A DNA stretch of 64,000 bases from Armatimonadota bacterium (GCA_043814095.1 JBDRKI010000023.1:277-64276), one strand, 5' to 3'; positions 3,314 to 30,019 are shown, numbered from the stretch's first letter. Numbers and translations: made by a program. Notes: generated by a model from the letters alone, not told the origin.

Positions 3314-3594
<281 letters not shown>

Positions 3595-3597
3595 AGC

Positions 3598-3626
3598 ATA
3601 AAAATCCCGTTTTACGGGATTTTTTT
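3598..3626. terminator. Bidirectional intrinsic terminator between the tRNA and the macro-domain gene
   Basis: AAAAATCCCGTtttACGGGATTTTTTT. Confidence 0.6.
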
Positions 3627-4139: not shown

Positions 4140-4293
4140 ACCATACCTCCATTGCCGTATTATATTAATATATAATTTATTTAAGTAAAAATAATTAAAA
4201 ATCCTTGTTTTTGCAAAAAAAGGAACTTTTTAATAAAGATATAATTTAATGAGTCTATGCGAAAACATACAATTATTCGGAGGTTTTAAGGCT

Positions 4294-7203: not shown

Positions 7204-7217
7204 CCGCGGAGTTTTTT

Positions 7218-7994: not shown

Positions 7995-8063
7995 TCTGTG
8001 GTATAATTTGGGGGTAGATTATATAAACGCCCTGTAAGGCGTAATTTTGTAAGGAGGATAAAT

Positions 8064-12410: not shown

Positions 12411-12443
12411 AAAAAAGACCGTGTGTGTTTACACGGTCTTTTA
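12411..12443 (-). terminator. Intrinsic terminator downstream of the nitrilase-family gene
   Basis: AGACCGTGTGtgtttACACGGTCT with a T-run on the minus strand. Confidence 0.6.
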
Positions 12444-12458
12444 ATAGAAGTTTAATTT

Positions 12459-13316
12459 TTAACTGAGCGATAAAGCAGGTTTTAACAGTTCATCGGTGTA
12501 TGAATCAAGATTTCTGTCTTTTATGTGATCAAATTTTCTTTTTGCGTTTATCCCGTAAGATACTGTTTTATCTTTGTCGGGCTTTAATTCCGCGAATACT
12601 ATCTCTTCACTGCCTCTTGCAAGTGCCAGTTTATGGGCATTAGGGTCTACAATCATGGAATGGCCGAAATAGTAGTTTGCATCACCGTCAGGCCCCACCG
12701 TGTTTACCGCAACAACATGAACATGGTTGTCATATGCTCTTGCCTTGTTTGTAAGATCCCAGATGTCAAAGCTTCTGAGTAAAGCCGAAGGTCTTACTAT
12801 TATCTCCGCTCCTCTTAATGCCAGTATCCTTGCAAGTTCGGGGAAATCGCCGTCATAACATATCATAAGCCCGACTTTTCCGAAATCGGTATCTACTATG
12901 ACGATATCTTTGCCGGGATGCGCCCATCCGCCTTCTGCATGTCTTTCAGTGGGGAATAAGTGTATTTTTCTGTAGATACCTTTTATCTCGCCCTTTTTAT
13001 TTATATATACCGCGACATTGTAGATTTTGTCTTTCTGGCGTTCATACATAGGAAGAACTATATCTACATTAAGCTCCTTGCATAAACCGCTTATAAATTC
13101 CGTGGAGCGTCCCGGTATCTGTTCTGTGTATTTTAAAAAGTTTTTCGCGGGTATGCCCGGCGCGAATGTTGTTGTTATGCTTTCCGGGAATACAATTAAA
13201 TGCGGCTTGAATTCTTTAACCGCTTTTCTGGTCCATACGCCCATCTTAGTTAAGTTTTCTTCCACGGCAAGCGGTTTTGCCGCAATTTGTATCCCGCAGA
13301 CTCTGCATTTTTTCAT
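12459..13316 (-). CDS. Carbon-nitrogen hydrolase (nitrilase/amidase superfamily)
   Basis: CN-hydrolase fold signature (E-K-C triad context, GxCYDxxFPE-like block MICYDGDFPE). Confidence 0.75.
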   Translation of the reverse strand: MKKCRVCGIQIAAKPLAVEENLTKMGVWTRKAVKEFKPHLIVFPESITTTFAPGIPAKNFLKYTEQIPGRSTEFISGLCKELNVDIVLPMYERQKDKIYNVAVYINKKGEIKGIYRKIHLFPTERHAEGGWAHPGKDIVIVDTDFGKVGLMICYDGDFPELARILALRGAEIIVRPSALLRSFDIWDLTNKARAYDNHVHVVAVNTVGPDGDANYYFGHSMIVDPNAHKLALARGSEEIVFAELKPDKDKTVSYGINAKRKFDHIKDRNLDSYTDELLKPALSLS

Positions 13317-13327
13317 GTTATCTCCGT

Positions 13328-14080
13328 TTATTCCTCATGGAAGGCGACTACTCTGGCGAACGCGCTTTCCCCGCCTAAAAACTTCCAGGGGAATATGCCG
13401 ATATTTGTTCTTTTATTTAAGAGTTTATCTATTTCCCCGCCTAAATTTTCCGCATGTATAATATTGTGCGGGAATAATACTATATGCATTAACTGGTAAT
13501 GATCTTTAGGAAAAAGCTGATCAAGTGTTTTACCATGTTTTTCCGCACATTCCTGGGCGAGGTCGGGTCTCCATTCCCTTATTTTGGTGTTAAACGGATG
13601 GTCCGCGCTTCCGCAGTCAACGCCTATCCATTTGATTTTTTTCTTTATGCACCACTGGGCGAATTCCATGGAGGGCCCCGGGTGTTTAATCATATATCTT
13701 ACTTCATCCGCATCGGGCTGGTCCCATGCGTAATGATGGTATCCCGTATGTATAATTAGGATGTCTCTTTCTTTTACTTCAACTCTGTCTTCAATATCCT
13801 TAGAGGTATAGAAGCCGTAATCTTCCGCTATATCGCTTAGGTCAACCACCGCAGCCGGACCGTATAAATCTTCCAGGGGGACAGAGGCAATATCTCTCCC
13901 GTTTGTGCAGAAATGAAGAGATCCGTCAAGATGGGTTCCCACATGGTTGCTTGTTGTTATAAGCTGGCCGTTAGCTCCGTTGGTTGAGAGGCGTTTGAAA
14001 AATTTAACCTGCAGGGGCTCGTAAGTCGGCCATGCAGGGGTATTCGCGCCCGTATTTTGAGTTAAATCGTATAATTTCAT
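13328..14080 (-). CDS. Cyclase-family protein (kynurenine formamidase-like amidohydrolase)
   Basis: HVGTHLDGSLHF metal-binding motif of PF04199. Confidence 0.7.
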   Translation of the reverse strand: MKLYDLTQNTGANTPAWPTYEPLQVKFFKRLSTNGANGQLITTSNHVGTHLDGSLHFCTNGRDIASVPLEDLYGPAAVVDLSDIAEDYGFYTSKDIEDRVEVKERDILIIHTGYHHYAWDQPDADEVRYMIKHPGPSMEFAQWCIKKKIKWIGVDCGSADHPFNTKIREWRPDLAQECAEKHGKTLDQLFPKDHYQLMHIVLFPHNIIHAENLGGEIDKLLNKRTNIGIFPWKFLGGESAFARVVAFHEE

Positions 14081-15264
14081 ATTACACCGTCCTTCTTTAA
14101 TTTTTCTATCTCATTATAATCATATTCCAGGAATTCTTCAAGTATGGAGAATGTATGCTCCCCAAGTTCCGGCGCTTTGCCTCTTTTATCGGAATCTTCG
14201 GATGAGCTCATTTTGACTGGATTTCCCGCAAGAGTCATTCTCCCTATAACGGGATCTTCTGTTTCAACGAACATTTTTCTTATCTTTAACTGTGGATTTT
14301 TTGCTACCTCTTCCATTTTAGCTATGCGGGTAGAGGGGATATGGTGTGTATGGAGTATTTCTTCCCATTCGGAAGCTGTTTTCTTTGAGAATAATTCTTC
14401 CAGTATCTGTGATATTTCAATGTAGTTTTCACACCTTAGCTTATTTGTCTTAAACTTAGGGTTTTCTTTAAGTTCTATAAGCTCTAATGCATTACAGAAA
14501 GTTTCCCATATTTTATCGTTCCCGATGGCCACTATAAGCCACGCGTCTTTTGTCTTAAATGCCTGGAAAGGGGTTATTGTCGGGTGGCGCGTGCCTAAAG
14601 GGGCAGGGGAGGACCCGTCCACAAGATACCTTATAAGGGCGTTCTCAAGTATCGCAAGCTGGCAGTCAAGCATTGATATATCAAGTTTCTGTCCCTTACC
14701 CGTTATTGTTCTCTGGTAGATAGCGGCATTTATACCTATAGCCGCGAAGAGCGCCACTACTATATCGCCGACCGACATACCCACCCTTACCGGCGGGCCT
14801 TCAGGCCAGCCGGTTATACTCATCATGCCGCCGAGCGCCTGGACTATCATATCATAAGCAGGCTTATTAGCCCAGGGTCCGGTATGGCCGAACCCCGATA
14901 AAGATGCGTATATTAATTTAGGATTTAATTCTTTTAATGTTTCATACCCGAGCCCTAATTTCTCCATAGTTCCCGGACGGAAGTTTTCTACCAGAACATC
15001 CGCTTTTTTTACAAACCTTTTTATTATTTCAATACCTTCTTCTTTTTTAAGATCAACGGTTATGCTTTCTTTCTCCCTGTTAATGCTTAAAAAATAGACG
15101 CTTTTCTCGTTTTTAAACGGCCCGTAATGGCGGGAATCATCTCCTTTTACGGGGTGTTCTATTTTAACAACACGGGCTCCCATCTCACGAAGGAGCATGG
15201 TGCAGTATGGTCCGGCAAGTACCCGGGACATATCAAGTACTACTATATTTTCCAGAGGTTTCAT
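14077..15264 (-). CDS. CoA-transferase family III (CaiB/BaiF-like)
   Basis: N-terminal LxGxxVLDxSxxxAGPxCTxxLxxxGAxVIKIE motif. Confidence 0.8.
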   Translation of the reverse strand: MKPLENIVVLDMSRVLAGPYCTMLLREMGARVVKIEHPVKGDDSRHYGPFKNEKSVYFLSINREKESITVDLKKEEGIEIIKRFVKKADVLVENFRPGTMEKLGLGYETLKELNPKLIYASLSGFGHTGPWANKPAYDMIVQALGGMMSITGWPEGPPVRVGMSVGDIVVALFAAIGINAAIYQRTITGKGQKLDISMLDCQLAILENALIRYLVDGSSPAPLGTRHPTITPFQAFKTKDAWLIVAIGNDKIWETFCNALELIELKENPKFKTNKLRCENYIEISQILEELFSKKTASEWEEILHTHHIPSTRIAKMEEVAKNPQLKIRKMFVETEDPVIGRMTLAGNPVKMSSSEDSDKRGKAPELGEHTFSILEEFLEYDYNEIEKLKKDGVI

Positions 15265-15280
15265 GTTTTTCTCCTGGTTT

Positions 15281-15466
15281 TTAATGTTTGTTTATGTGTA
15301 AAATTTGTTTTGTTTTTTGCAGAAAATCAGCAGCAGATTCAATACATGAAGAAGCCCCTTCTTTGGAGAATTCTCCATGATAGTCGGCGCTTTCCCTAAG
15401 TATCATAGCAGAATGTAGATTCTTTAATAATACTTCCTTTAAAGGGTATGATTTTTTGCCTTTCAA
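15281..15466 (-). CDS. Short HEPN-domain protein (61 aa; possibly truncated toxin partner of the upstream nucleotidyltransferase)
   Basis: R-x5-H (RESADYH) HEPN-like motif; sits 13 nt after the MNT gene stop. Confidence 0.4.
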   Translation of the reverse strand: MKGKKSYPLKEVLLKNLHSAMILRESADYHGEFSKEGASSCIESAADFLQKTKQILHINKH

Positions 15467-15481
15467 TTGCTTTTTGAAATT

Positions 15482-16018
15482 CTAAGTCCTCTTTTCTTCC
15501 CATAATAGAATACCTCTTTCTAATTCTTCGTAAAAGACAGGATTGTTTTTTTTGGTTTTTATAAGCTCATTGGGTGTTTTAATAACATATTGAATCTTTT
15601 CTCTCAAGCTGTCTTTAAAAATTATTTTTTCGGCTTTGTCCGGGTATTGTGTAATAATAAAAATATCTATATCGCTTTGAGAGTGATTTTTTCCCGTTGC
15701 GCAGCTTCCGTAAAGAATTATTTTTATGGATATTTCTTTCAGTTTGTCAATTAACGGTTGTAAAAAAGTAGCGGTTTGCAATATTTTTAAATGCTTTATA
15801 ATTATACTGTCCGTAGGTGCTTTATAGAAAGACATTCTGCCGCGTTTTTCTCTTAAAATTAATCCCTTTTCAGCCAAATTTCTCAATGCGAAATTTGTTC
15901 CTGCTCTGCTTACTCCTGTTAATTTTGAAATTTCACGGTCGAAATATTCATTGCCCGGATTTTGAATAAGGAAAGAGAGTATCTTTTGCGCATTAGTAAA
16001 AAACAAGAGATTTTGCAT
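15482..16018 (-). CDS. Minimal nucleotidyltransferase (MNT) with N-terminal winged-helix DNA-binding domain
   Basis: LYGSCATGKNHSQSDIDIFI (GSxxxG...DxD) Pol-beta-type NTase motif; N-terminal wHTH (LTGVSRAGTNFALRNLAEKGLI). Confidence 0.7.
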   Translation of the reverse strand: MQNLLFFTNAQKILSFLIQNPGNEYFDREISKLTGVSRAGTNFALRNLAEKGLILREKRGRMSFYKAPTDSIIIKHLKILQTATFLQPLIDKLKEISIKIILYGSCATGKNHSQSDIDIFIITQYPDKAEKIIFKDSLREKIQYVIKTPNELIKTKKNNPVFYEELERGILLWEEKRT

Positions 16019-16030
16019 TACAAACGCCCC

Positions 16031-16070
16031 AATCTATTATATTAGATTTAAATCTATTATAATAGATTTA
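16031..16070. promoter_or_regulatory. Two tandem 20-bp imperfect palindromes (AATCTA-N6/8-TAGATT) 13 bp upstream of the MNT start; candidate autoregulatory operator
   Basis: AATCTATTATATTAGATTTA / AATCTATTATAATAGATTTA read directly. Confidence 0.5.
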
Positions 16071-16097
16071 AAGTTTTAAGTCAAGTATTACATATTG

Positions 16098-17351
16098 TTA
16101 TACTTTTATTTTTTCCATATCTTCAACATACGCCTCAAAGGCTTCTTCAAAGCAGTTTCCGGGAGGTTTAACGAGCCCTGCTCCCACCTGTCCTATACCT
16201 GCTTCTTTATGGGCTATGCCGGTATTTATAGCGGGAAGTATCCCCGTTTCAATTATTTTTGCAAGATTAAATCCTGTAGGCGTGCCCCTGAAGTTGACTG
16301 CCGGTATCTTATAGGTTGTGTTTTCCGCGTCGGTAATCTGGTACATGTCGAGCGTTGTTTTTACGGCGTCACGCGGCGTGCCGCCCACAAACTGGACTAT
16401 AGCAGGCGCGCCTGCCATTGCTACACCGCCTATGCCGGAGGTCTCGGTAATAACACTGTCCCCTATATCCGGGTTAGCATCGTCTTTTGTAAATCCGGGG
16501 AAGTATAATCCATCCACATCCTGCGCGGGTCCTGTGAACCACTTATCCGGGAAATGGCTTATCTTTATCCCGAATTCGGTCCCGTTTCTTGCCATTGTTG
16601 TAATTATACAGCTCCCGTTTATGCCTTCAGCGGGCATAAGGGCGCATTTTGCGGCCGGCATTGTGAGATTAAGGAAGAAATGGTCATTGCTGTGTATAAA
16701 TTCTAAAACTTTTGAAATTGTTTCTTTATCAAAGTTTGTTTTAACTATTGAAGGGGCAATTTCCCTTATAAACAGGGATGTGCCGGCTTTGTTTCTGTTA
16801 TGGCCTTCGTCTCCCATAAGGAGCGCCTGGGCTATAAGGTTTTTAAGATTAAGCTCGCCGCCATAGATTTTAAGAGCTTCAGACAATACGGGATAAAGCA
16901 CATCTTCCATCCATTTTAATCTTGTTATTACTTCTTCAGAATACGCGCCGTATCTTAAGACTTTGCCTAATCCCTCATTAAGTGTGCAGTATGCCTTGTT
17001 TCCGTAAGTTTTATTTTCTACTATAAATACTGGCATGCTCGGTGTTATAACTCCCGCCATAGGGCCTACGGAACTGTGATGGTGGCAGGGTGCGAATTTT
17101 ATTTCCCCGCTTTTGGCTAAAATTTCAGCTTCTTGAGGAGTTTTGGCCATCCCTTCATATATAATGCCGCCTATGATAGCGCCGCGGAGCGGCCCTGACA
17201 TCTTTTCCCATGTTATGGGAGGGCCTGCATGCAGGAAGAGATTTTTTTCCATGTTAGGTATAACATCTATGGCTTTCCCGAAACCCGTAAGGGTGGGTTG
17301 TGCCTGCATAATGGTATCAATGACTTTTTTATTAGATTGATCAATATTCAT
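16098..17351 (-). CDS. DUF1116 / YlbE-like protein (oxamate-carbamoyltransferase-associated family)
   Basis: Size and recollected resemblance to E. coli YlbE; located with an FdrA-like gene. No alignment was run, so moderate confidence. Confidence 0.45.
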   Translation of the reverse strand: MNIDQSNKKVIDTIMQAQPTLTGFGKAIDVIPNMEKNLFLHAGPPITWEKMSGPLRGAIIGGIIYEGMAKTPQEAEILAKSGEIKFAPCHHHSSVGPMAGVITPSMPVFIVENKTYGNKAYCTLNEGLGKVLRYGAYSEEVITRLKWMEDVLYPVLSEALKIYGGELNLKNLIAQALLMGDEGHNRNKAGTSLFIREIAPSIVKTNFDKETISKVLEFIHSNDHFFLNLTMPAAKCALMPAEGINGSCIITTMARNGTEFGIKISHFPDKWFTGPAQDVDGLYFPGFTKDDANPDIGDSVITETSGIGGVAMAGAPAIVQFVGGTPRDAVKTTLDMYQITDAENTTYKIPAVNFRGTPTGFNLAKIIETGILPAINTGIAHKEAGIGQVGAGLVKPPGNCFEEAFEAYVEDMEKIKV

Positions 17352-17423
17352 AATTTACCTCTCAATAATTAATATAATTATAGCAAGTAAATTATAACAT
17401 TGTGGAATTAGTGGAGCAAGTAC

Positions 17424-18272
17424 TTAAATCCCGATGATTCTTTTTAAGCCGCGGGGGAGCCGGTACCATTTTCTGCCCTGCACTTTTCTTATTTTCTCAG
17501 GTACGGTTCTTGTGGATGGTTTTAACGGGCTTTTTGCTCTTGCGCCTGTAGGGAGGTCCGGTTTTGGGGCGGCAATCTGTTTTTTTCCGAGTTTTACAAA
17601 ATCATCAAATCTTTCAAGAGAGCCGTTAATTCCCGGTTGGTAATATTTTTTAATGGCTGCTTCAAGTTTAAACTTCATAGCCAGATATCCGGTTTTTTTG
17701 TCTGTACATATCTTTTTAAGAGAGCTGTCTAGAATTCTGTTTAGCCGTTTTGAGATTCGATACCCTATATTATCCTTGCTTACATAAGCGGCCTGGCGTA
17801 TCTCGTATTGAAATATCCAGTTAATGTCTTTAACGCCGCTTATCCCGTAATCTACCAGAAGGGATGTAAATTGTCTCATTAGGTTTCTAAAGGCTCTTTC
17901 CTCATGGCTAAGTTCTGTAATATAGATGGTTTTAGTTCTTTCTGTCAGATTTTTACAAAGCTGGAAAAATTTATCTGAGCATTTATTATATCTGTTTTTA
18001 CAAAGCCGGTATTTTTTAAATTTTTTGATGCTTCTGAATCCCTGCAGTCTTGTTAATTCTTTATCCAGGTCGCCCATTAAATTCCTTGTCTTGTGAATCT
18101 GGTCAAGGATTTTTACACATTCCGGGTCTTTTTCAATTTTTTGCGCGAACCGGTTTATAAAATCAGATACTTGTTTGCGGGGAAATGTCTTTAGAAGTTC
18201 ATCCCCGTTTTTTGCGGGTGATGAATTAAAATCTGAATTTTGTCCTGTTATTTTAATTATTGATGCATTCAT
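17424..18272 (-). CDS. Hypothetical basic protein (282 aa)
   Basis: ORF only; no recognisable motif. Confidence 0.4.
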   Translation of the reverse strand: MNASIIKITGQNSDFNSSPAKNGDELLKTFPRKQVSDFINRFAQKIEKDPECVKILDQIHKTRNLMGDLDKELTRLQGFRSIKKFKKYRLCKNRYNKCSDKFFQLCKNLTERTKTIYITELSHEERAFRNLMRQFTSLLVDYGISGVKDINWIFQYEIRQAAYVSKDNIGYRISKRLNRILDSSLKKICTDKKTGYLAMKFKLEAAIKKYYQPGINGSLERFDDFVKLGKKQIAAPKPDLPTGARAKSPLKPSTRTVPEKIRKVQGRKWYRLPRGLKRIIGI

Positions 18273-18312
18273 TATCAGTCCTCTATTTATCTTAAGAAAG
18301 TATTATAATTAT

Positions 18313-19302
18313 TTAACCGGATATGTCAATTACGCTGTCTACAAGCCCATAGAGCTCTTTATAGCTGTCCACTTTATATATATTATTCCTGAAAGCCGCG
18401 GCTCCTTTTATCCCTTTAAAATAATAAACAGCCATTTTACGGGCAAGGGGAACCGCTCTTTTCTCTCCGTAATATTCTCTTATGTATTCCGCGTGACGCA
18501 AGAAAACTTCTTTCTTTTCTGAAATATCGGGATAAGTTGTTACAGAATCAGTATCTGCCGCCGCTTCTATTTCTTTGAATATCCACGGGTTTCCGAATGC
18601 ACCCCTTGCTATCATAACACCGTCCACGCCTGTTTTCTCAACCATATTTTTTACATCTTCTGTGTTCATCAAGCCGCCGTTTCCCATAACAGGGATATGC
18701 ATATCTTTTTTAATCTGCGCGATAGTTTCTATATCAACCGGCCCTGTATAGAATTCTTCCCTTGTTCTGCCGTGGATAGTGATTAAGTCTATGCCTTCAT
18801 CCTCGGCTATTCTTGCAAGCTCCGGCGCTGTTTTATTATTCTTCGACCAGCCGGTTCTCATTTTGACCGATAATATGCCTTTATGCTCACTCCTTGCGGC
18901 CTTAATTATCTCTTTAGCATTATCAAGATTCTGCATTAGCGCTGCTCCGGCGCCTTCTTTTACTATTTTTCTTACAGGACACCCCATGTTTATGTCTATC
19001 CACCTGAAACCGTCTTTCTGGGAAAGGATATAAGCTGCTTTTTTTATCCAGTCAGGCTTACTTCCCACAATCTGGACCGCAAAGAATTCTTCTCCGGCAT
19101 CCTTTAAGTATTCTTCTTGTGTTTTTTTATTGCCGTATATAAGAAGGCCGGTATGCACCATCTCGGAGAATAATACTTTGCCTCCTACCTCCGCCAGGAT
19201 TTTCCTGAAAGGATAATCAGAATACCCGCTCATAGGCGACATTACTATGCGGTTTGGGATTTCTATATCACGGATTGTTAGGGGTTGTATTAGGTGTTTC
19301 AT
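18313..19302 (-). CDS. dus: tRNA-dihydrouridine synthase
   Basis: PMSGYSDYPFR...NMGCPVRKIVKEGAGAALM Dus signature. Confidence 0.85.
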   Translation of the reverse strand: MKHLIQPLTIRDIEIPNRIVMSPMSGYSDYPFRKILAEVGGKVLFSEMVHTGLLIYGNKKTQEEYLKDAGEEFFAVQIVGSKPDWIKKAAYILSQKDGFRWIDINMGCPVRKIVKEGAGAALMQNLDNAKEIIKAARSEHKGILSVKMRTGWSKNNKTAPELARIAEDEGIDLITIHGRTREEFYTGPVDIETIAQIKKDMHIPVMGNGGLMNTEDVKNMVEKTGVDGVMIARGAFGNPWIFKEIEAAADTDSVTTYPDISEKKEVFLRHAEYIREYYGEKRAVPLARKMAVYYFKGIKGAAAFRNNIYKVDSYKELYGLVDSVIDISG

Positions 19303-19312
19303 AATATTACTG

Positions 19313-19495
19313 TTATTTTCTCAATTTATTATAACGTTCCAGCAGGTCCAGCATTTTTTTGTTTCCGCCTGCCGGAGGGCGCCACTGGACAGACACAACT
19401 TTTGTATTTTCTTTTTTAAGATTTTCCGCAAAAGAGGAAAGACCGATATTTAGGACTTTTAATTCTTTATTTATTAGGTTTGTGTTGTTTTTCAT
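19313..19495 (-). CDS. Small hypothetical protein (60 aa)
   Basis: Short ORF filling the gap between dus and the fdrA-like gene; uncertain. Confidence 0.25.
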   Translation of the reverse strand: MKNNTNLINKELKVLNIGLSSFAENLKKENTKVVSVQWRPPAGGNKKMLDLLERYNKLRK

Positions 19496-19504
19496 AAAAT
19501 CACC

Positions 19505-21037: not shown

Positions 21038-21112
21038 AAGAATTCTCCTTAAGTCATTATGCCGTAAAAAGATTATAACCTTATTCTTTGACTGTTTCAA
21101 GGCAGGAATAAT

Positions 21113-21146
21113 AAAAGACCTTTTTTATCAATAAAGGTCTTTTATT
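21113..21146. terminator. Intrinsic terminator (hairpin with a long AT loop)
   Basis: AAAGACCTtttttatcaataaAGGTCTTTT. Confidence 0.5.
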
Positions 21147-21179
21147 ATACATTTGATATAATTTATGACAATGATTTAA

Positions 21180-21785
21180 TTATGATTCTTTTATAACAGA
21201 AACTTCTTCTTCCTTCACATTAACCGCTTTAGGAGCTTTTACATCTTCATACATAAGCACTATGGCCGTTATTGCTATCGGCATTGTCACAAGCATGCCT
21301 ATCCCGAAAAACAATGCGCCGGCCGTTAAGATTATTCCCGCAAGAAGGGCAAATACGATATATTTCAGCCAGTCAGTCGCGGCAATATCCTTGCTCTTCA
21401 TCATTGCTTCCCAGAAGTCTTTCTCCCCGTCAAGGATTATAAGGTAGGTAAAGAGGAAAGCACCGATAACTATAAGCCCCGGGATTACAAGAAGAAGAAG
21501 CCCCAGCGCGGTTAATAAGGTTATAACTATGCCCGCAAGCAGGGAAGGTATTATTAATTCGGTTTTCTTAAATACAATAAACAGGTCGCCGACTTCCGCA
21601 GTGCCTTCGGTAATTTTTCTTTTTACGAAGTAATAATAACCTATCAGGAAAAGTCCCGATACAAAACCGCCGATCCATATAATGCTGAGAAGGGCGGTTA
21701 CAGCAAGGTAAACCAGAGTGGCCAGTATATATCCTCCCCAGTCTTTCCCGACCTCGGTTAAAGCTTCTCCGAAATATTTTGTCAT
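21180..21785 (-). CDS. Integral membrane protein, unknown function
   Basis: Four or five hydrophobic helices. Confidence 0.5.
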   Translation of the reverse strand: MTKYFGEALTEVGKDWGGYILATLVYLAVTALLSIIWIGGFVSGLFLIGYYYFVKRKITEGTAEVGDLFIVFKKTELIIPSLLAGIVITLLTALGLLLLVIPGLIVIGAFLFTYLIILDGEKDFWEAMMKSKDIAATDWLKYIVFALLAGIILTAGALFFGIGMLVTMPIAITAIVLMYEDVKAPKAVNVKEEEVSVIKES

Positions 21786-21892
21786 AATAACCTCCGTATT
21801 GTTTATCCGTAAAAAGCCGCATTTTCTCCGGATTTTAATTTATTCTACAATAGTATACGATTTGCCTTTATAAAAGTTTCAAATTATAAATT

Positions 21893-22321
21893 TTATTTCA
21901 TGCCTATAAGAATAACTCCCAAGGAAGTAAAAATAAGGCCGGTTATGTTAACTAATGTAACCGGTTCTTTTAATAGTATGGTTCCTAGCACATATCCGAG
22001 TACAGGTGTTAATCCGAACGCTATGGGGATTACCCGGCTTAAGTGGCCCGTGCTTATACCCATGTAAAAGCAGAGCATCCCGAAAGATCCGGCTATTACC
22101 CCGCCTCCTATTATGATATAAAGAAGGGGTTTTATGCCGCAGCTTGACACAGATCCCCATTTTGTGAAGCTGAACAAGCTTAATACGATAAGGGCTATAA
22201 ATGTACGCATTGTAATACCTGCCACAGGCGGGATACCCCCCATATTAAGCCCCTTCTTTTCAAAAAAGCCGCCCACACTCCAGAGGACGGCCGTAAGAAT
22301 TGCCAGAGTTACTGCTTTCAT
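21893..22321 (-). CDS. EamA-like small transporter (DMT superfamily, 4 TM)
   Basis: Hydrophobic 142-aa protein with an EamA-like pattern. Confidence 0.5.
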   Translation of the reverse strand: MKAVTLAILTAVLWSVGGFFEKKGLNMGGIPPVAGITMRTFIALIVLSLFSFTKWGSVSSCGIKPLLYIIIGGGVIAGSFGMLCFYMGISTGHLSRVIPIAFGLTPVLGYVLGTILLKEPVTLVNITGLIFTSLGVILIGMK

Positions 22322-22323
22322 TT

Positions 22324-23157
22324 TTATTCTCCCGAAAATAAGTTAAACATAAAATCCACGCCGCATAGAAAATCTTTGCTTGATGTGTGGCCGTAATTTA
22401 TGTTTTCAAGTTCTTCTTCTTTTAACGGTATATCGCTTGCCAGTTTTTCAAAAAGGATAAACTGCCAGTCGCTTACATATCCCATCATCGCCAGGACAAT
22501 ATAATACCACGATATCCTGCCGGTTTTTTTGTAAATAACCCGCGCTGTTTTTAAAAACGGCGGGTTCCATATTTTTTCTGTCCTGCCGGCTTCAATAAGA
22601 AGCTTCATCACAAGTATCGTCCCGCATATAAAATCATCAGTTGAAGGGGTAAGGCCTTCCCCGAGGCCGGCTATATCTGTCAGATTTTCATAGAATTTGC
22701 CGGGGTTATTTTTTTTCCACGCTTTTTCCATTTTTTCTATATTTATTTTTATAAGGTCAAGATACGCAAAATCGGTTTTTTTAACATAAGAGTTAAGCGC
22801 GGAAATATTTTGTTTGTTTAAAGGGTCAAATTTAATATCATTAATTTTTTTTGAAGAATGGTCAATTGGATTAAGGTAAATCATTTTGTCGTCGGAGTAA
22901 CATCTCCCGCGCTGTATATGAAAATATTTTTTTTCTTTAAAAAAATCCGGCATCCTGTAAGGGAATACGGCTGTTACCGGGTTGCACTGTTCGTTTGTTC
23001 CGGCAAGCAGGGTAACTATTTTAGAATTATTTAAGGAAACATAAGCGGTCCTGTGCGAACGCGATATGATTTCACAGCTGTACCTGCGCGGATCAAAGAA
23101 AAGTTTTCTAATGTGTCTGTCTACAACTATATCAACCGGTTGATGCATAGTACACAA
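22324..23157 (-). CDS. Hypothetical protein co-oriented with the Mo-hydroxylase genes (possible accessory factor); contains GLGEGLTPSTDDFICG motif
   Basis: ORF 4 nt downstream of the Mo-subunit gene; family not recognised. Confidence 0.4.
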   Translation of the reverse strand: MCTMHQPVDIVVDRHIRKLFFDPRRYSCEIISRSHRTAYVSLNNSKIVTLLAGTNEQCNPVTAVFPYRMPDFFKEKKYFHIQRGRCYSDDKMIYLNPIDHSSKKINDIKFDPLNKQNISALNSYVKKTDFAYLDLIKINIEKMEKAWKKNNPGKFYENLTDIAGLGEGLTPSTDDFICGTILVMKLLIEAGRTEKIWNPPFLKTARVIYKKTGRISWYYIVLAMMGYVSDWQFILFEKLASDIPLKEEELENINYGHTSSKDFLCGVDFMFNLFSGE

Positions 23158-23160
23158 TCC

Positions 23161-25551
23161 TTATTTATTTTTTTTTAATGCTTCAAGTCCTTTGAGTATT
23201 TTTTCCGCCGTAACGGGGAGATCTTTTATCCTTACCCCCGTCGCATTATATACCGCGTTGGCTATTGCGGCAGGTGTCGGTATCATTGTATGTTCGCCGA
23301 CGCCTCTTGCGCCGTAGGGCCCGTCGAGCTGCGCGGTCTCCACGAAGGTTGCTATCATCTCTTCAGGCATATCTTTGGATGTGGGTATCTTGTAATCAAC
23401 AAAGGACTGATTTAAGACCCTGCCTGTTTTCTCATCCAGATGGAGCTGCTCCATAATGCCCGCGCCCATGCCCTGCACGATGCCTCCGTATGCCTGACCG
23501 AGCGCTCCCTGCGGGTTTATTACCTTGCCTATATCATATGTGCAGGCAACTTTAAAAATTGTAATCCTGCCGGTATCCGGGTCTACGGAAAGATCCACTG
23601 CCTGGCCTCCGAAAGTCCAGTTTGCGACCGGTTTAGGGGACTGTCCTGTTTCCGGATCGCAGTTTATGCACCCTTGAGCCGTAAAGTATCCTCTGCCGGC
23701 AACAGCCCCGCCTATTGTATGGCCGTCAGGGTACTGGTATCCCATGCAGATATCCTTAATGTCTATCTTTTTGGACTTATCTGTTTTTGAAATTATATAT
23801 CCGTCCTTTATTTCTAAATCAGAAAGTGATCTCTGCAGGGCCTCTTTGGCTATAGTGAATAATTGTTTTTTTGCATCTTCACAGGCCTTCTTCACTGCAT
23901 TCCCGCAGGAGAATGTCAATCTGCTTGCGACTGTCTGCCATTCATATGGCGAGTAATCCGTATCAGGCAGTGCTATGACAGCGACTTTTTCAACAGGGAT
24001 GCCCAGTTCTTCTGCGGCAATCTGAGCCATCGCGGTCATAACGCCCTGGCCGATCTCCATGCCGCTGAACATAAGCTCTATCCCCCCGTCTTCGTTGAAT
24101 TTTAACATGGCGGCCGAAGTTGCATTATTAGGCATGGCAGGGGCTTTCTGCGCCAGAGCAAATCCTACCGCCCTGTATTTTGGTCTTTCCTTATAGTAGT
24201 CTATATTTTTTGTAACTTCATTGATACATTTTTCTATATCACCGGTATTTTTTGTTACATACTGGCCTGTTGCCGTATGGGATCCTTCTCTTAATATATT
24301 TTTCTTTCTGAATTCTACCGGATCAAATCCTAAATCCCGGGCCATCATATCCATATGCTGTTCAATGCCCCAGTGGATTTCGCTCATCCCGAACCCGCGG
24401 AAAGCGCTCCCGACAGGTCTGTTGGTGTATACTCCTATTGAATCTCCCTTAAGGTTGTCTATATTATAGGGGCCGCATAATGAATAGCCGGCCGCCCTTA
24501 CTATATTAACACCGTATCCGGCGTATGCGCCGCAGTCCCAGATATACTCGTTTTCCTGCGCTATGATTCTTCCGTCTTTTGTAATGCCGGATTTTATCCT
24601 TATGTGGCATGCCTGTCTTACTACAACAGCGTGCATCTCTTCTTCTCTTGTGAGTATGAGTTTTACAGGGAGCCCCGTGCATTTCATGGAGAGAGCCACG
24701 GCTATGGGTTCTATGTTAATACCTGCCTTACATCCGAACCCCCCGCCTACGAAGGGAGCTATTACTCTGAAATCGTTTATTTTTTTACCGAAACAGTGTG
24801 AGAGAAGATATCTTACGGTAAAAGGCGACTGGCATGAAGACCATACGGTTGTTTTCCCCGCGTGGTCTGTTACCGCTATAGACCCGTGAGTCTCCATGGG
24901 TACATGCTGTATCTGCGGAACATAGAATCTGTTTTCAATTATATGGTCAGCTTCTTTAAACGCTTTTTTAGGATCGCCCTTCCTTATTTTAAAGTGATTC
25001 GCGATATTGGTATGGGGAACGGGGTTTATTGCGCTTACGTGAAAATATTTATGAAGCTCGGGATGAACAAGCGGCGCGCCTTTTTTCATTCCCTGTATGG
25101 GATCAAAGTTCGGTTTAAGTTTTTTGTATTTCACTTTTATAAGGGAGAGGGCTCGCTCCGCTATCTCTTCGGTTTCGGCCGCGACTGCCGCGACCGGCTC
25201 GCCCACATAACGCACTTTTTCCATGGCGAATATGTACTGGTCAACATGGTATATGCCCACATTATACGGGTAATCTTTTCCTGTTATAACTGCCTTTACC
25301 CCGGGAAGCTTTTCCGCTTCGGTTGTGTCTATTTCTATCATAGCGTGGGGTTCAGCGCTTCTTAAAACTTTCGCTATTAATGTGCCTGAAAGCTGGATAT
25401 CATCAACATATTTTGCGGCGCCAGTTACTTTCGCGAGGGCGTCTACACGCGCGGTTTTTTTGCCTATAACATTATATTCTTCTTTTTCTATGTCCATAGA
25501 TTCTATCTGGTTGAATATTTCGGTCTGTGTCATAACTTCAGCGTTTTTCAT
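23161..25551 (-). CDS. Xanthine dehydrogenase/aldehyde oxidase family molybdopterin-binding large subunit
   Basis: 796 aa with characteristic MoCo-binding blocks (GGGFG, molybdopterin-binding domain motifs). Confidence 0.85.
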   Translation of the reverse strand: MKNAEVMTQTEIFNQIESMDIEKEEYNVIGKKTARVDALAKVTGAAKYVDDIQLSGTLIAKVLRSAEPHAMIEIDTTEAEKLPGVKAVITGKDYPYNVGIYHVDQYIFAMEKVRYVGEPVAAVAAETEEIAERALSLIKVKYKKLKPNFDPIQGMKKGAPLVHPELHKYFHVSAINPVPHTNIANHFKIRKGDPKKAFKEADHIIENRFYVPQIQHVPMETHGSIAVTDHAGKTTVWSSCQSPFTVRYLLSHCFGKKINDFRVIAPFVGGGFGCKAGINIEPIAVALSMKCTGLPVKLILTREEEMHAVVVRQACHIRIKSGITKDGRIIAQENEYIWDCGAYAGYGVNIVRAAGYSLCGPYNIDNLKGDSIGVYTNRPVGSAFRGFGMSEIHWGIEQHMDMMARDLGFDPVEFRKKNILREGSHTATGQYVTKNTGDIEKCINEVTKNIDYYKERPKYRAVGFALAQKAPAMPNNATSAAMLKFNEDGGIELMFSGMEIGQGVMTAMAQIAAEELGIPVEKVAVIALPDTDYSPYEWQTVASRLTFSCGNAVKKACEDAKKQLFTIAKEALQRSLSDLEIKDGYIISKTDKSKKIDIKDICMGYQYPDGHTIGGAVAGRGYFTAQGCINCDPETGQSPKPVANWTFGGQAVDLSVDPDTGRITIFKVACTYDIGKVINPQGALGQAYGGIVQGMGAGIMEQLHLDEKTGRVLNQSFVDYKIPTSKDMPEEMIATFVETAQLDGPYGARGVGEHTMIPTPAAIANAVYNATGVRIKDLPVTAEKILKGLEALKKNK

Positions 25552-25566
25552 ATTTACCTCCGCGTA

Positions 25567-26034
25567 TTACACATTCACGTTTATACTGTCTCTTATGGCT
25601 TCAATAATTTGTTTGTAACCTGTGCACCTGCATAAATTACCAGCAATAGCTTCTTTTATATCTTCATCTGACGCTTCCGGGTTTTTCATTAAGAGTGCTT
25701 TCGCGCTCATAAGCATCCCGGGGGTGCAGAACCCGCACTGTATGGCGTTATGTTCTATGAATTTTTTCTGTAAGGGGTCAAGCTCCCCGTCTTTCGGGAG
25801 CCCCTCAACGGTTATGATATCCGCACCGTCTGCTTCAACTGCCAGCATTAAACAGGAATTAACGGCTTTCCCGTTTACTATGACGGTGCATGCTCCGCAT
25901 TCGCCTTCACCGCATCCTTCTTTTGTGCCTGTGAGATAGAGTACTTCCCTTAAGAATTTTAATAAGGTCATGGAGTTGTCAGAAATCTGTTTTGTTTCCT
26001 TTTTACCGTTTATCGTAAAGGTTATGGTTTTCAT
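25567..26034 (-). CDS. (2Fe-2S)-binding small subunit of Mo-hydroxylase
   Basis: CGEGECGACTV and CGFCTPG cluster motifs. Confidence 0.9.
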   Translation of the reverse strand: MKTITFTINGKKETKQISDNSMTLLKFLREVLYLTGTKEGCGEGECGACTVIVNGKAVNSCLMLAVEADGADIITVEGLPKDGELDPLQKKFIEHNAIQCGFCTPGMLMSAKALLMKNPEASDEDIKEAIAGNLCRCTGYKQIIEAIRDSINVNV

Positions 26035-26056
26035 AATCCACCTCGTTAATTTTTTA
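26028..26056. repeat. 29-bp direct repeat copy 1 (TTTTCATAATCCACCTCGTTAATTTTTTA): stop-RBS-start junction
   Basis: Identical to 26506-26534; contains the 2Fe-2S start codon and RBS plus the hicA stop. Confidence 0.8.
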
Positions 26057-26282
26057 AAAGCCGTTCCAGTGTCTCTGGTGTAATATCGATATCTCTTAGA
26101 ATTTTTCTGAGAAGGCCCCGGCCTATGGTTTTTCCTTTGTGAACGGGTATGGTTGTTATTCTTCCGTCGGGATGATGGTATCTCCAGTGACTTCCTCTGG
26201 ATTTTCTTGTATTTTTAAAACCGAGTTTTTCAATAATAACTATTAATTTCTCAGGTTTTAAAACAGGTAATTTTTTACTCAT
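26046..26282 (-). CDS. hicA: HicA toxin (mRNA interferase)
   Basis: 78 aa with the HicA/YcfA pattern (GSHxxxxHP). Confidence 0.8.
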   Translation of the reverse strand: MSKKLPVLKPEKLIVIIEKLGFKNTRKSRGSHWRYHHPDGRITTIPVHKGKTIGRGLLRKILRDIDITPETLERLLKN

Positions 26283-26512
26283 ACGGCTATCTCCAGATAT
26301 TTAACTCCTATAATTTCGGGATACCGCAAATTAATAACCTTTTTAGATTGTTCGACTTCTTCCAAACAAATTTTAATCACATCTTTTATATTTTTCATAG
26401 CTTCTTCAAAAGTATCGCCTTGAGAATAACAACCTTCCAAACTCGGACAGGAAACTATATATTTCCCGTCTTCATCCATTTCCACCAAAACCGGTACATT
26501 GTATTTTTTCAT
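26279..26512 (-). CDS. hicB: HicB antitoxin (UPF0150-like)
   Basis: 77 aa with the HicB N-terminal fold pattern; overlaps hicA by 4 nt. Confidence 0.75.
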   Translation of the reverse strand: MKKYNVPVLVEMDEDGKYIVSCPSLEGCYSQGDTFEEAMKNIKDVIKICLEEVEQSKKVINLRYPEIIGVKYLEIAV

Positions 26513-26534
26513 AATCCACCTCGTTAATTTTTTA
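26506..26534. repeat. 29-bp direct repeat copy 2
   Basis: Identical to 26028-26056; contains the hicB start and RBS plus the FAD-subunit stop. Confidence 0.8.
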
Positions 26535-27360
26535 GCTCATTTACCGCTTTTATAAATAGTTCTTTGGCAATTTTACATCTGAAATCAGCCGAGCCTCTTA
26601 AATCCGATATGGGTTTAAGAGGGAGGAGTTCCGCCGCTTTTGTAATTGATTTTAGATCCAGGCCGTGTTTTGCAAGGTGTTTCTCGCTGTTTTTGGCCCT
26701 TGCGGTTATGGCCGCGCATGCTCCCACTGCAGCTCTTATACCGGGTTTTGATTTGTGGCTTACAAATGCCACAGCAATATTTACCGTTGAAAGATCAACT
26801 GCTTTTCTTCTTGAGAATTTATAGAATATGCTTTTAACGCCTTCCGGCTTAGGTATTGTTACCGATTCTACAAATTCATCCGGCTTAAGTACGGTCTGTC
26901 CGGGGCCTTTAAAGAATTTATGTATAGATATGCTCTTTTTTCTGCCGCCTGATATTATATTAAGCTTAGCGTCATAAATTAGGAGTGCAGGGAGGGTATC
27001 TGCCGCGGGGGACGCGTTGCAGATATTTCCCGCAAGAGTTGCCCTGTTTCTTATCTGGTATGAACCGACCTCCCTTGCGCCCTGTGTAAGGGAAGGATAA
27101 TATTCATTTATAATATTATTTTCAGCCAGCTGGTTTAAGCTGACTCCTGCGCCTATTGTAATATCTTTTTTGGATTCAACAATAGAATTTATACCTTTAA
27201 TATTCTTAATATCTATTACGCATGAGGGTTTTATTGTTTTATGGCGCAGTTTAACGAAAAGATCTGTGCCGCCCCCCAAAAGATATGTATCTTTTTTATT
27301 TTTCTTGAGGAGTTTTTTAAGTTCGGCCGTGCTTGAAGGTCTATAGTATTCAAAATTCAT
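26524..27360 (-). CDS. FAD-binding subunit of Mo-hydroxylase (CoxM/XdhB-like)
   Basis: N-terminal Y(Y)RPxSxxEAxxLL...LLGGGTDL FAD-binding motif. Confidence 0.85.
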   Translation of the reverse strand: MNFEYYRPSSTAELKKLLKKNKKDTYLLGGGTDLFVKLRHKTIKPSCVIDIKNIKGINSIVESKKDITIGAGVSLNQLAENNIINEYYPSLTQGAREVGSYQIRNRATLAGNICNASPAADTLPALLIYDAKLNIISGGRKKSISIHKFFKGPGQTVLKPDEFVESVTIPKPEGVKSIFYKFSRRKAVDLSTVNIAVAFVSHKSKPGIRAAVGACAAITARAKNSEKHLAKHGLDLKSITKAAELLPLKPISDLRGSADFRCKIAKELFIKAVNELKN

Positions 27361-27472
27361 AATAACCTCCGGATTATGGACTAATTACCTATATAATAAG
27401 CAAATTCTAACAAAATTAATAATAAAAGTCAAAGCAAGTTAAGTTATATAAATTCAAATAAATTGATAAGAA

Positions 27473-28798
27473 TTAAACCGTATTTGCTTTAACTGTCTTA
27501 CTTTTCAATATATTCTTGCTTACCGTAAACCATATTAATATTCCTATAAGGAATATGGATAAGAATAAGTGTAGATACTTAAAGTTATATTTATATAATC
27601 CAACTCCCAGCACTGTAAAGGGAAGAATAGAAGCTATTATTGCACCTGTCCAGCCTCCTGGTACTTTTACAAGTCTTTCTTTATCAGGGTGTGTTACCCG
27701 CAGCTTTAAAAATGTTATTACTTCAAAAAGAAGCATGACTGCATATAGGAATATATCAATCTCGATAAGGCCCGCGAAGGGAAATATACAGAAAACACAT
27801 ACCATACCGCTGCATATAAGAAGGGAGAGCCAGGGTACCCTGTTTTTTCTTATCCTGAAAGCAAAGAATTTAGGCAGAAACCTGTGAAATGCAAGTGAAT
27901 AAGGGATTCTTGATGTATATAATAATATGGTGGAGATCTGGTTTACAATCCCGAAAAGGATTGCCACCAGTATAATAAGGCCGAGTCCGGGCCCTCCTAT
28001 TGATTTTGCTATAAGGGGGAAATAACCGCTTGTCCAGCTCTGCCAGCTGCTTGTCGCGCAGAGGCAGGCGTAAACGGTAACGGTATATATTAATGCTATG
28101 AGAGGTATATTTATTAATATAGCTCTGGGGAAATTTTTAGCTGGATTTACAACTTCGGGCATACACGGAGAAAAATCCTCCCACCCGTTGTAATTCCACA
28201 TTATTATGAAAACCCCGATCCCCAGGCATCCCGCTAATTCCTTGCCCGGGATAATAAAGGGCGTAAAAGGAAGAAGTGTTTTTGCTTTTAAAAACGCCAT
28301 GATTATAAGTACGATGAAGGGTACCAAAGTAATTATTGTCATTGTAAGGGCGCCGAACCCCACAGCTTTGATGCCCAGCATATTTAAAACCGTAAAAACA
28401 GCGACTATAGCTATGCATATAAGGATACGCTGTTTAGAAGTCATGTCCGGCATGAAATACATAAGGTAATCCGCGAATAAAACTGGATAAAGCGCTGTAT
28501 CAACAATATTTCTTATCCATGAAAGCCATCCTACCTGGAAAGACCAGAATGACCCGCAGGAATGTTTTATCCATGTGATATACCCGCCTTTTTGCGGGAA
28601 GGCGGAAGAAATCTCAGCTGTTATGAAAGAAATGGGCAGGCTCCATAAAAGAGGTATAAGCAGGAGCAGCAGGATTACAAGTCCGGGTCCTGTCGTGGAT
28701 ACGGCCTGTTCAAGCCCGTATGGGCCGCCTGCTACTATTGAGAAAACGACGACAACGAGCGTGAACAGACCTATTTTTTTTCTAAAAGCTTCTTTCAA
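27473..28798 (-). CDS. Amino-acid/polyamine/organocation (APC) family permease
   Basis: 12-TM protein with APC-type N-terminus. Confidence 0.7.
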   Translation of the reverse strand: MKEAFRKKIGLFTLVVVVFSIVAGGPYGLEQAVSTTGPGLVILLLLLIPLLWSLPISFITAEISSAFPQKGGYITWIKHSCGSFWSFQVGWLSWIRNIVDTALYPVLFADYLMYFMPDMTSKQRILICIAIVAVFTVLNMLGIKAVGFGALTMTIITLVPFIVLIIMAFLKAKTLLPFTPFIIPGKELAGCLGIGVFIIMWNYNGWEDFSPCMPEVVNPAKNFPRAILINIPLIALIYTVTVYACLCATSSWQSWTSGYFPLIAKSIGGPGLGLIILVAILFGIVNQISTILLYTSRIPYSLAFHRFLPKFFAFRIRKNRVPWLSLLICSGMVCVFCIFPFAGLIEIDIFLYAVMLLFEVITFLKLRVTHPDKERLVKVPGGWTGAIIASILPFTVLGVGLYKYNFKYLHLFLSIFLIGILIWFTVSKNILKSKTVKANTV

Positions 28799-29831: not shown

Positions 29832-30019
29832 ATTATTATTACCTCCGTTTTAAAGTGTAAAAAGCTTCTATTTAAATAAAAACTATTCCTTTATTTTTGA
29901 ATATATTGCTTACCGATAATTATATAAAGGATATAAGGTATAAAAGGAGAAAAAAATATAAAATTCATTCTTTTTATTACTGCAACCCATTATATTATTA
30001 CTTTAATAAGGTGAGAATT

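Follow-up and report, generated by a model that had tools for sequence, protein, structure and literature searches.

The 64,000-nucleotide stretch of Armatimonadota bacterium DNA analysed here (GCA_043814095.1, JBDRKI010000023.1:277-64276; the window) carries on its minus strand a gene cluster that combines a molybdenum (Mo) hydroxylase, homologues of the carbamoyltransferase AllFGH of E. coli, a cyclase-family amidohydrolase, a nitrilase-superfamily C-N hydrolase and a coenzyme A (CoA) transferase. The odds slightly favour an operon for anaerobic oxidative pyrimidine breakdown, acting most likely on uracil or thymine via barbiturate. With good confidence we propose the more general logic of such a route, in which a ring would be hydroxylated and opened to an N-acylurea, the N-acylurea phosphorolysed to carbamoyl phosphate, the remaining amide hydrolysed and the resulting dicarboxylate activated as a thioester. 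We infer all pathway steps from homology and gene context. The cluster itself is real and widespread, and it is apparently undescribed. Gene calls are based on Pfam, NCBIfam with its equivalog cutoffs, PADLOC, Rfam, tblastn, and a comparison of the window proteins with their closest PDB entries. The ten genes of the cluster and the hairpin at its 3' end are:

26524-27360, minus strand: flavin adenine dinucleotide (FAD)-binding subunit of the Mo hydroxylase (PF00941 and PF03450)
25567-26034, minus strand: small iron-sulphur (FeS) subunit with two [2Fe-2S] clusters (PF01799 and PF00111; eight Cys)
23161-25551, minus strand: large, molybdopterin-binding Mo subunit (PF01315, PF02738, PF20256)
22324-23157, minus strand: AllH/YlbF, DUF2877 (PF11392, E 2.2e-15)
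19505-21100, minus strand: AllF/FdrA, SucD-like (CoA_binding and Ligase_CoA domains; NCBIfam FdrA 531 bits, cutoff 433)
19313-19495, minus strand: 60-amino-acid AllF-tail gene (45% identity to the C-terminal tail of E. coli FdrA)
16098-17351, minus strand: AllG/YlbE, DUF1116 (PF06545, E 6.8e-103)
14077-15264, minus strand: family III CoA-transferase (PF02515, CoA_transf_3, E 4e-129)
13328-14080, minus strand: cyclase-family metal amidohydrolase (PF04199, Cyclase, E 6.8e-36)
12459-13316, minus strand: nitrilase-superfamily C-N hydrolase (PF00795, E 9.7e-49)
12413-12442, minus strand: terminator-like hairpin with a 12-bp stem followed by a T-run

The hairpin (12442-12413) lies 17 nucleotides past the stop codon of the C-N hydrolase gene. 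An original prediction, which had described the region as a catabolic island for N-heterocycles, placed its open reading frames (ORFs) correctly, with the minus strand used throughout, and Pfam and NCBIfam matches agree with its naming of the Mo/FeS/FAD trio, the FdrA-like and DUF1116/YlbE-like proteins, the C-N hydrolase, the CoA-transferase and an APC permease. AllF probably starts at the ATG at 21037, which gives a product of 510 amino acids; its homologues have 513-514.

The genes belong together in many organisms. A scan with AllG alignment patterns, using one genome per species, gave at least 593 confirmed loci, of which the best 80 were kept. Synteny was counted in 40 loci, each from another species, that extend at least 8 kb to either side of AllG. 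AllF is found in 39 of these 40 loci, a cyclase-family gene in 38 (for 37 of them immediately downstream of AllG) and the Mo subunit in 30, while the CoA-transferase (14/40) and the C-N hydrolase (5/40) are found less often. This arrangement is far beyond chance, which answers the concern that the genes are unrelated neighbours, and the synteny across many phyla bears out the idea of a conserved functional unit for N-heterocycle breakdown. Bacillota, Thermotogota, Spirochaetota, Chloroflexota, Verrucomicrobiota, Elusimicrobiota, Cloacimonadota, Myxococcota and others are represented among the best 80 loci. In Candidatus Muiribacterium halophilum (locus L001) the genes form a compact operon in the order FAD-FeS-Mo-AllH-AllF-tail-AllG-CoA-transferase-cyclase-C-N hydrolase, and the same gene content is found in compact form in Alkaliphilus transvaalensis (L030) and A. 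serpentinus (L089).

Clustering of the ORFs from the related loci separates a core, consisting of the Mo trio, AllH, AllF, the tail gene, AllG and the cyclase, from downstream modules that alternate. In module A the CoA-transferase is accompanied by a C-N hydrolase, which is the case in the window, or by an amidase-signature enzyme. In module B, the commonest alternative, a protein of 232-240 amino acids with weak GNAT similarity, an archaeal-type thiolase and a DUF35 zinc-ribbon protein replace the CoA-transferase and the amidase; it occurs in about 17-21 loci, including L007, L008, L021, L025, L036, L040, L052, L066, L067 and L088. Module C is a complete malonate decarboxylase or an MmdA-like carboxyltransferase.

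The gene at 22324-23157, which the original prediction had listed as an unknown accessory gene, is AllH/YlbF, so that a full homologue of the AllFGH carbamoyltransferase is present. In E. coli this enzyme interconverts oxalurate and phosphate with carbamoyl phosphate and oxamate, and it works without CoA (PMC11326118). The window AllG is 46% identical to E. coli YlbE, matches PDB entry 3clq with 455 bits and shares 57-84% identity with homologues in at least 15 phyla. AllF is 39% identical to E. coli FdrA and matches PDB entry 3dmy at E 1.6e-87, and AllH shares 27% identity with the C-terminal part of E. coli YlbF. An AllH-family gene precedes AllF in most related loci, as seen with Pfam, the divergence being too great for tblastn. 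In NCBIfam, AllF exceeds the cutoff of the general FdrA model alone, and neither AllG nor AllH has a matching model there.

Between AllF and AllG lies a gene for 60 amino acids, whose product is 45% identical to residues ~498-555 of E. coli FdrA and 55-79% identical to free-standing small genes of two relatives. The gene was detected by tblastn in 84 of 87 sequences, and its end lies no more than 150 nucleotides upstream of AllG in all detected cases except L005 and the window. It is free-standing in L001, L005 and L089, while in Marinitoga P0045, P0012 and P0027 and in other lineages, some spirochaetes among them, the peptide is fused to the N-terminus of AllG. The fusion to AllF in E. coli and to AllG in Marinitoga, a Rosetta-stone pattern, suggests that the tail tethers the two subunits to each other, and the peptide thus probably connects AllF and AllG. 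Since it is conserved near-universally just upstream of AllG, we regard it as a genuine fourth component of the AllFGH-type complex.

The complex in these clusters and the E. coli enzyme have the same three subunit families and the same predicted chemistry, the phosphorolysis of an N-acylurea to carbamoyl phosphate and an amide. Co-location with a carbamate kinase is likewise shared in some related clusters: homologues with 37-41% identity to AllK are part of the clusters of L011, L036 and L041, and L039 has one close to its cluster. The differences are nevertheless considerable. Sequence identity is limited to the values given above, the tail of AllF is split off or, in other lineages, fused to AllG, there are no allantoin genes in these clusters, and the complex is linked to a Mo hydroxylase and a cyclase-family hydrolase. 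It is predicted to act on ureidomalonate instead of oxalurate, and its amide product would be metabolised further instead of being excreted.

The AllFGH chemistry, the gene context and the fact that ureidomalonate is the next higher homologue of oxalurate lead to the pathway proposed here. The Mo/FeS/FAD hydroxylase would oxidise uracil at C6 to barbiturate, or thymine to 5-methylbarbiturate. The cyclase-family metal amidohydrolase would then open the ring. Its product, ureidomalonate, is an N-acylurea with one carbon more than oxalurate, and AllF with its tail, AllG and AllH would cleave it with phosphate into carbamoyl phosphate and malonamate. A carbamate kinase encoded elsewhere could use the carbamoyl phosphate to form adenosine triphosphate (ATP). 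Malonamate would be hydrolysed to malonate and ammonia by the nitrilase-family amidase and malonate converted to malonyl-CoA by the family III CoA-transferase, and enzymes encoded elsewhere would decarboxylate malonyl-CoA to acetyl-CoA.

The large subunit of the Mo enzyme stays below the cutoffs of two named NCBIfam models, XdhA (580 bits, cutoff 780) and the 4-hydroxybenzoyl-CoA reductase alpha subunit (561 bits, cutoff 995). Its motif GGGFGCK-A has an Ala at the position of bovine Glu802, the xanthine-binding residue, and this Ala is conserved across the clade. The equivalents of Arg880 (in AFRGFG) and of the catalytic Glu1261 (in GVGE) are kept, and the motifs GGGFGxK-A-G, xRGFG and ARG(V/I)GE are common to 40 cluster-linked homologues. 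The window protein shares 42-76% identity with cluster-linked homologues and 34% with E. coli XdhA, to which the cluster-linked homologues are 30-35% identical. The FAD subunit is 278 amino acids long, with homologues of 53% identity in L001 and 27-45% in other loci; as it contains only four, scattered Cys, it lacks the HcrB-type 4Fe-4S insert. Compared with XdhABC of E. coli and HcrABC of Thauera, the enzyme thus has the same three-subunit Mo/FeS/FAD architecture with the catalytic Glu and the Arg880 equivalent, while the scores under both cutoffs, the Ala at the Glu802 position and the missing 4Fe-4S insert set it apart as a distinct clade that always stands beside AllFGH and the cyclase. 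These features fit a hydroxylase of distinct specificity and neither a xanthine dehydrogenase nor an HcrABC-type reductase, and we predict that the large subunit belongs to a uracil/thymine C6-hydroxylase.

The closest PDB entry of the Mo subunit is 4-hydroxybenzoyl-CoA reductase (1rm6_A, 362 bits), and AllF has CoA_binding and Ligase_CoA domains. A heteroaromatic acid could on these grounds be degraded via CoA esters: the CoA-transferase would activate it, the Mo enzyme, resembling 4-hydroxybenzoyl-CoA reductase, would act on the ester, and the SucD-like AllF complex would recover the thioester energy as ATP in the manner of an ADP-forming acyl-CoA synthetase. This explanation is close to the CoA activation of the heterocycle suggested in the original prediction. 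We consider it very improbable, because the CoA-transferase is optional in the loci counted whereas the Mo trio, the cyclase and AllFGH form the core, the FAD subunit has no 4Fe-4S insert, and E. coli AllFGH needs no CoA (PMC11326118). It also leaves the links to carbamate kinase, uracil permease and malonate decarboxylase unexplained. What the CoA-transferase activates is most likely the final dicarboxylate, malonate, and not the heterocycle.

Selenium may contribute to the activity of the Mo hydroxylase in part of the family. The tblastn searches found neither of the selenium hydroxylase accessory genes YqeB and YqeC in the window, SelD not having been searched for, and XdhC and MocA are missing from the 64 kb as well. 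XdhC, MocA-like, YqeB and YqeC genes do accompany some Firmicute clusters, with YqeB above its cutoff in L018 (6374-7168) and L089 (14498-15319) and YqeC-like ORFs in L009 and L018. Their presence in clusters of Alkaliphilus and other Bacillota indicates that the hydroxylase may be selenium-dependent there.

Like the Mo subunit, the cyclase-family protein, the C-N hydrolase and the CoA-transferase miss all named equivalog cutoffs. The metal-binding motif of the cyclase, HxGTHxDxxxH, is intact (HVGTHLDGSLH). Its likeness to kynurenine formamidases, by which it had been described earlier, is weak (42 bits; TIGR03035 53.5 against a cutoff of 223). We predict it to be the ring opener that converts barbiturate to ureidomalonate. 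The C-N hydrolase has the motifs of the Glu-Lys-Cys triad (FPE, RKIHLF and ICYD), and among PDB entries it comes closest to the omega-amidases Nit3 and Nit2; omega-amidases act on mono-amides of dicarboxylates. In other clusters its place beside the CoA-transferase is taken by the amidase-signature enzyme, with malonamidase E2 as the closest PDB entry (E 2e-42). The C-N hydrolase is thus a predicted malonamate amidohydrolase. Among named NCBIfam models the CoA-transferase is matched best by CoA:oxalate CoA-transferase (386 bits, below the cutoff of 522), and the PDB entries nearest to it are two dicarboxylate enzymes, YfdE and SUGCT; with E. coli YfdE it shares 44% identity. We predict it to act on malonate or methylmalonate. 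The downstream modules in related clusters belong to, or come closest to, the families of malonamidase E2 and malonate decarboxylase (Mdc/Mad). The window has a nitrilase-superfamily amidase and a family III CoA-transferase instead, with no decarboxylase nearby, and these two enzymes are predicted to do equivalent jobs.

The original prediction had left the substrate as purine-, pyrimidine- or pyridine-like. The related clusters point to a pyrimidine and away from the other two, through their UraA/RutG-like permeases, their malonate enzymes and the exchange of the ring-opening enzyme in one locus. An NCS2 permease is carried by 22 related loci. Ten of these permeases were tested, and nine matched UraA and RutG best, about 90-400 bits above pbuX; one cluster-linked permease exceeds the UraA cutoff and nine of the ten stay below the equivalog cutoffs. 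PucR regulators, found in eight loci, also speak for a pyrimidine. Directly downstream of the clusters L049 and L050 are genes for the alpha, beta, gamma and delta subunits of malonate decarboxylase and for a Na+-pump beta subunit, all above their curated cutoffs, and MmdA-like carboxyltransferases are found in L020, L051 and L069. The exchanged ring opener is seen in Flavonifractor porci (L063), one of the two fully flanked loci without the cyclase, from which the Mo enzyme is absent too. There, a ring-opening amidohydrolase of the AtzD/TrzD/barbiturase family (3512-4618) stands beside AllH-AllF-AllG, a transporter and a pbuX-like permease. L063 is the only locus with this family (PF09663) among the neighbouring ORFs scanned, and none is found in the window.

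Several observations weigh against uracil or thymine as the substrate and barbiturate as the intermediate. To our knowledge, no cyclase-family enzyme opens barbiturate. The nearest relative of the Mo subunit, 4-hydroxybenzoyl-CoA reductase, works reductively and on a CoA ester, the best named match of the CoA-transferase is an oxalate enzyme, and module B has no role in the proposed pathway. The ring-opening enzyme of L063 scores as a cyanuric acid amidohydrolase (535 bits, cutoff 360), so that this locus may act on a triazine instead of barbiturate. Finally, no NCS2 permease, no homologue of the carbamate kinase AllK and no malonyl-CoA or malonate decarboxylase was found in the 64-kb window, and the substrate assignment therefore rests on the orthologous clusters elsewhere.

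Since the substrate is deduced only from context, the same enzymes could follow the same logic on another ureide ring, for which barbiturate itself, a 5- or 6-substituted pyrimidine, deaminated cytosine or isocytosine, a triazine such as cyanuric acid or ammelide, and hydantoin are candidates. The score of the L063 enzyme, a TRZ/ATZ-family deaminase within the L033 cluster and the NCS2 subfamily assignments below the equivalog cutoffs would be in line with such a ring. Against it, the malonate decarboxylase, the MmdA-like enzymes and the malonamidase-like partners point to a C3 dicarboxylate skeleton, which triazine or hydantoin would not yield, and rings that are already fully oxidised need no Mo hydroxylase. 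Overall, we regard a different ureide ring as unlikely. AllFGH-type enzymes may, however, process ring-opened products of triazines or barbiturate, such as carboxybiuret or biuret.

A place in the purine/allantoin branch was also considered, with AllFGH as a true oxamate carbamoyltransferase, oxamate passing via oxalate to oxalyl-CoA, and the Mo enzyme as xanthine dehydrogenase. The homology of AllFGH to the characterised E. coli enzyme (46/39/27% identity for AllG/AllF/AllH), CoA:oxalate CoA-transferase and XdhA as best named matches, and PucR-type regulators in eight loci would agree with it. On the other hand, neither the window nor ~85 related loci contain AllA, AllB, AllC, AllD, AllE, Gcl, GlxK or Oxc (tblastn gave no match for allB, allC, allD and allE), the permeases are of the uracil type and not of the pbuX type, and malonate decarboxylase is linked in place of oxalate genes. 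The XdhA and YfdE scores lie under their cutoffs, the Glu802 equivalent is Ala, and the universally linked cyclase would have no role. This makes a purine/allantoin function improbable. The earlier statement that the route does not match canonical purine pathways is thus supported: genes for allantoin metabolism, oxalyl-CoA decarboxylase and reductive urate degradation are missing from the same loci and the window, and the purine/allantoin and reductive-urate routes were rejected for want of any of their marker genes in the vicinity. The clostridial route from xanthine to ureidoimidazole-carboxylate was rejected as well, because its ureide is an aryl-urea and not an N-acylurea and because it does not explain the malonate or CoA modules.

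In the window, the ancestral operon of ten genes is interrupted by four insertions, all on the same strand and at gene junctions. The inserted genes, and the permease gene upstream of the FAD gene, are:

27473-28798, minus strand: APC permease (PF13520)
26279-26512, minus strand: HicB (Pfam; HicB-HicA pair, PF15919 and PF07927)
26046-26282, minus strand: HicA (Pfam; second gene of the same pair)
21893-22321, minus strand: half-size EamA protein (Pfam)
21180-21785, minus strand: UPF0259/DUF975-like membrane protein (Pfam)
18313-19302, minus strand: tRNA-dihydrouridine synthase DusB (NCBIfam 324.5, cutoff 293.3)
17424-18272, minus strand: ORF of 282 amino acids with no Pfam, NCBIfam or PADLOC match
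15482-16018, minus strand: winged helix-turn-helix nucleotidyltransferase, MNT (PF18765 and PF01909; PADLOC PDC-M05A, E 4.9e-24)
15281-15466, minus strand: short HEPN-like ORF of 61 amino acids (Rx4H motif RESADYH; weak PADLOC PDC-M05B match)

The 60-amino-acid gene, DusB, the 282-amino-acid ORF, the half-size EamA gene and the UPF0259-like gene had not been noticed before. The first insertion, HicBA, separates the FAD and FeS genes, with gaps of 11 bp on either side; in L001 these two genes abut (4596/4597). The second consists of the EamA and UPF0259-like genes between AllH and AllF. A UPF0259-like gene with 51% identity is located at the same position in L005, the closest relative (AllG 82% identical), and both genes are missing from the compact operons L001, L030 and L089, hence the pair is a lineage-specific insertion. 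DusB and the 282-amino-acid ORF make up the third, between the tail gene and AllG. L005 has a Dus insertion too, but its ORF at the corresponding place is not similar to the 282-amino-acid ORF. The fourth, MNT and the short HEPN-like ORF, lies between AllG and the CoA-transferase gene, which overlap in L001. Two of the four insertions are toxin-antitoxin or defence-type modules. Of the HEPN/MNT and HicAB pairs described earlier, HicAB and MNT were recovered, while the HEPN partner consists of the 61-amino-acid ORF only, whose weak PDC-M05B match is to the C-terminal end. The toxin-antitoxin genes are passengers and not components of the pathway.

The four insertions, the truncated HEPN partner and the missing transporter, carbamate kinase and decarboxylase could be taken as signs that the cluster is decaying and non-functional in this genome, or that its genes are unrelated neighbours. 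Both are highly improbable: synteny is kept across phyla, and the ten pathway ORFs are all unbroken, with lengths that are normal by the standard of L001, L088 and L089. Since the gaps are short and none of the insertions changes strand, transcription could plausibly read through or start from internal promoters. A promoter scan was uninformative, with 62 sites against 48 ± 7.6 expected and terminator-like sites below expectation. It gave a promoter-like site ahead of the FAD gene (27432-27404), a weak indication, and two near the start of AllF (21171-21144 and 21100-21072). A perfect sigma-70 consensus (TTGACA, 16 nucleotides, TATAAT) is located at 18302-18329 on the minus strand, within the 3' end of dusB and 30 nucleotides upstream of the 282-amino-acid ORF. 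The Rfam scan found no riboswitch or other RNA within the cluster. The term island, if understood as a foreign insertion, finds no support in composition, which shows neither an anomaly over the block nor a sign of recent acquisition (GC 0.39-0.45, compared with ~0.41 for the window).

The APC permease had been counted as a member of the cluster, which is doubtful. All of its NCBIfam matches are far under cutoff, and it is not conserved with the cluster. A relative with 67% identity (L092) stands beside a DUF4412 homologue, as in the window, with no xanthine dehydrogenase genes nearby; another (L090, ~63-64%) is near XdhC, MocA and an FeS-subunit gene and not near this cluster, and a 45% identical relative has no link to cluster genes. 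In related clusters, NCS2 permeases serve in its place. The permease was therefore rejected as the substrate transporter, and the upstream boundary was placed at the FAD gene (27360).

The neighbourhood of the cluster includes a DUF4412 protein (28815-29831), a CARDB-like protein (11535-12341) and an ORF of 1271 amino acids (29897-33712, plus strand) that is divergent from the cluster and has no significant Pfam match; all three are probably secreted proteins or proteins of the envelope, with no relation to the pathway. On the opposite strand, 6.4 kb upstream of the FAD gene, is a TRZ/ATZ-family amidohydrolase (33730-35055, plus strand) that resembles MtaD/5'-deoxyadenosine deaminase at scores under the cutoffs. 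A homologue lies within the L033 cluster between AllH and AllF (6905-8197), and the protein may be a nucleobase deaminase that feeds the pathway. Elsewhere in the window, Rfam identified one group I intron and two group II intron D1-D4 regions (3327-3533, 37706-37877 and 55957-56245, plus strand); the first group II element is followed by an ORF of 425 amino acids (38110-39387), presumably the intron-encoded protein.

The classical aerobic oxidative pyrimidine pathway of Rhodococcus and Mycobacterium uses uracil/thymine dehydrogenase, barbiturase and ureidomalonase. It is mentioned in PMC3758960 and PMC4051656. The route predicted here would share with it an oxidising hydroxylase as the first enzyme and the intermediates barbiturate, ureidomalonate and malonate. 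The ring opener, however, belongs to the PF04199 cyclase family instead of the AtzD/barbiturase family, and ureidomalonate would be phosphorolysed to carbamoyl phosphate and malonamate, whereas in the classical pathway it is hydrolysed to urea and malonate. The hosts are anaerobes, and the predicted route would yield ATP and need no urease. The reductive uric acid pathway of anaerobes, with XdhD-YgfM, YgfK, SsnA, HyuA, YgeW, YqeA, YgeY and YgeX (PMC12507026), is likewise an anaerobic nucleobase route with a xanthine dehydrogenase homologue, a carbamoyltransferase and a carbamate kinase, and in Firmicutes it is also linked to the selenium maturation genes YqeB and YqeC. Apart from the xanthine dehydrogenase family, none of its enzymes has a homologue here: its carbamoyltransferase is YgeW and not AllFGH, and it ends in diaminopropionate and pyruvate, in contrast to the predicted malonate. 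The cluster thus resembles a hybrid of the AllFGHK branch of E. coli and the aerobic oxidative pyrimidine pathway and is a member of neither, because it lacks both the allantoin context and the AtzD-family barbiturase. No description of a cluster of xanthine dehydrogenase family, AllFGH and cyclase genes or of an anaerobic barbiturate route was found in the literature searched, in which subscription journals are thinly covered, nor by targeted reading in PMC12507026, PMC3519856 and PMC2276186.

The finding would give a function to a gene cluster of hundreds of anaerobe species (at least 593 species genomes matched the AllG patterns), the products of which are currently annotated only as DUF1116, 'acyl-CoA synthetase FdrA', 'cyclase family protein' and 'xanthine dehydrogenase family protein'. 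Cultured carriers exist in which the predicted function can be tested directly. We see an even chance that AllFGH-type complexes are general N-acylurea phosphorylases which, together with this clade of Mo enzymes and the cyclase, sustain a widespread, urease-independent and ATP-yielding anaerobic fermentation of uracil and thymine, in which barbiturate would be converted to carbamoyl phosphate and malonate or methylmalonate. If true, this would add another route of pyrimidine catabolism to the reductive, Rut, URC and aerobic oxidative ones, one that conserves energy via carbamoyl phosphate and perhaps also via Na+-pumping decarboxylases. It would also extend the newly characterised AllFGH enzyme beyond oxalurate, provide the first gene assignment for a uracil dehydrogenase and give the PF04199 'cyclase' family a new catalytic role.

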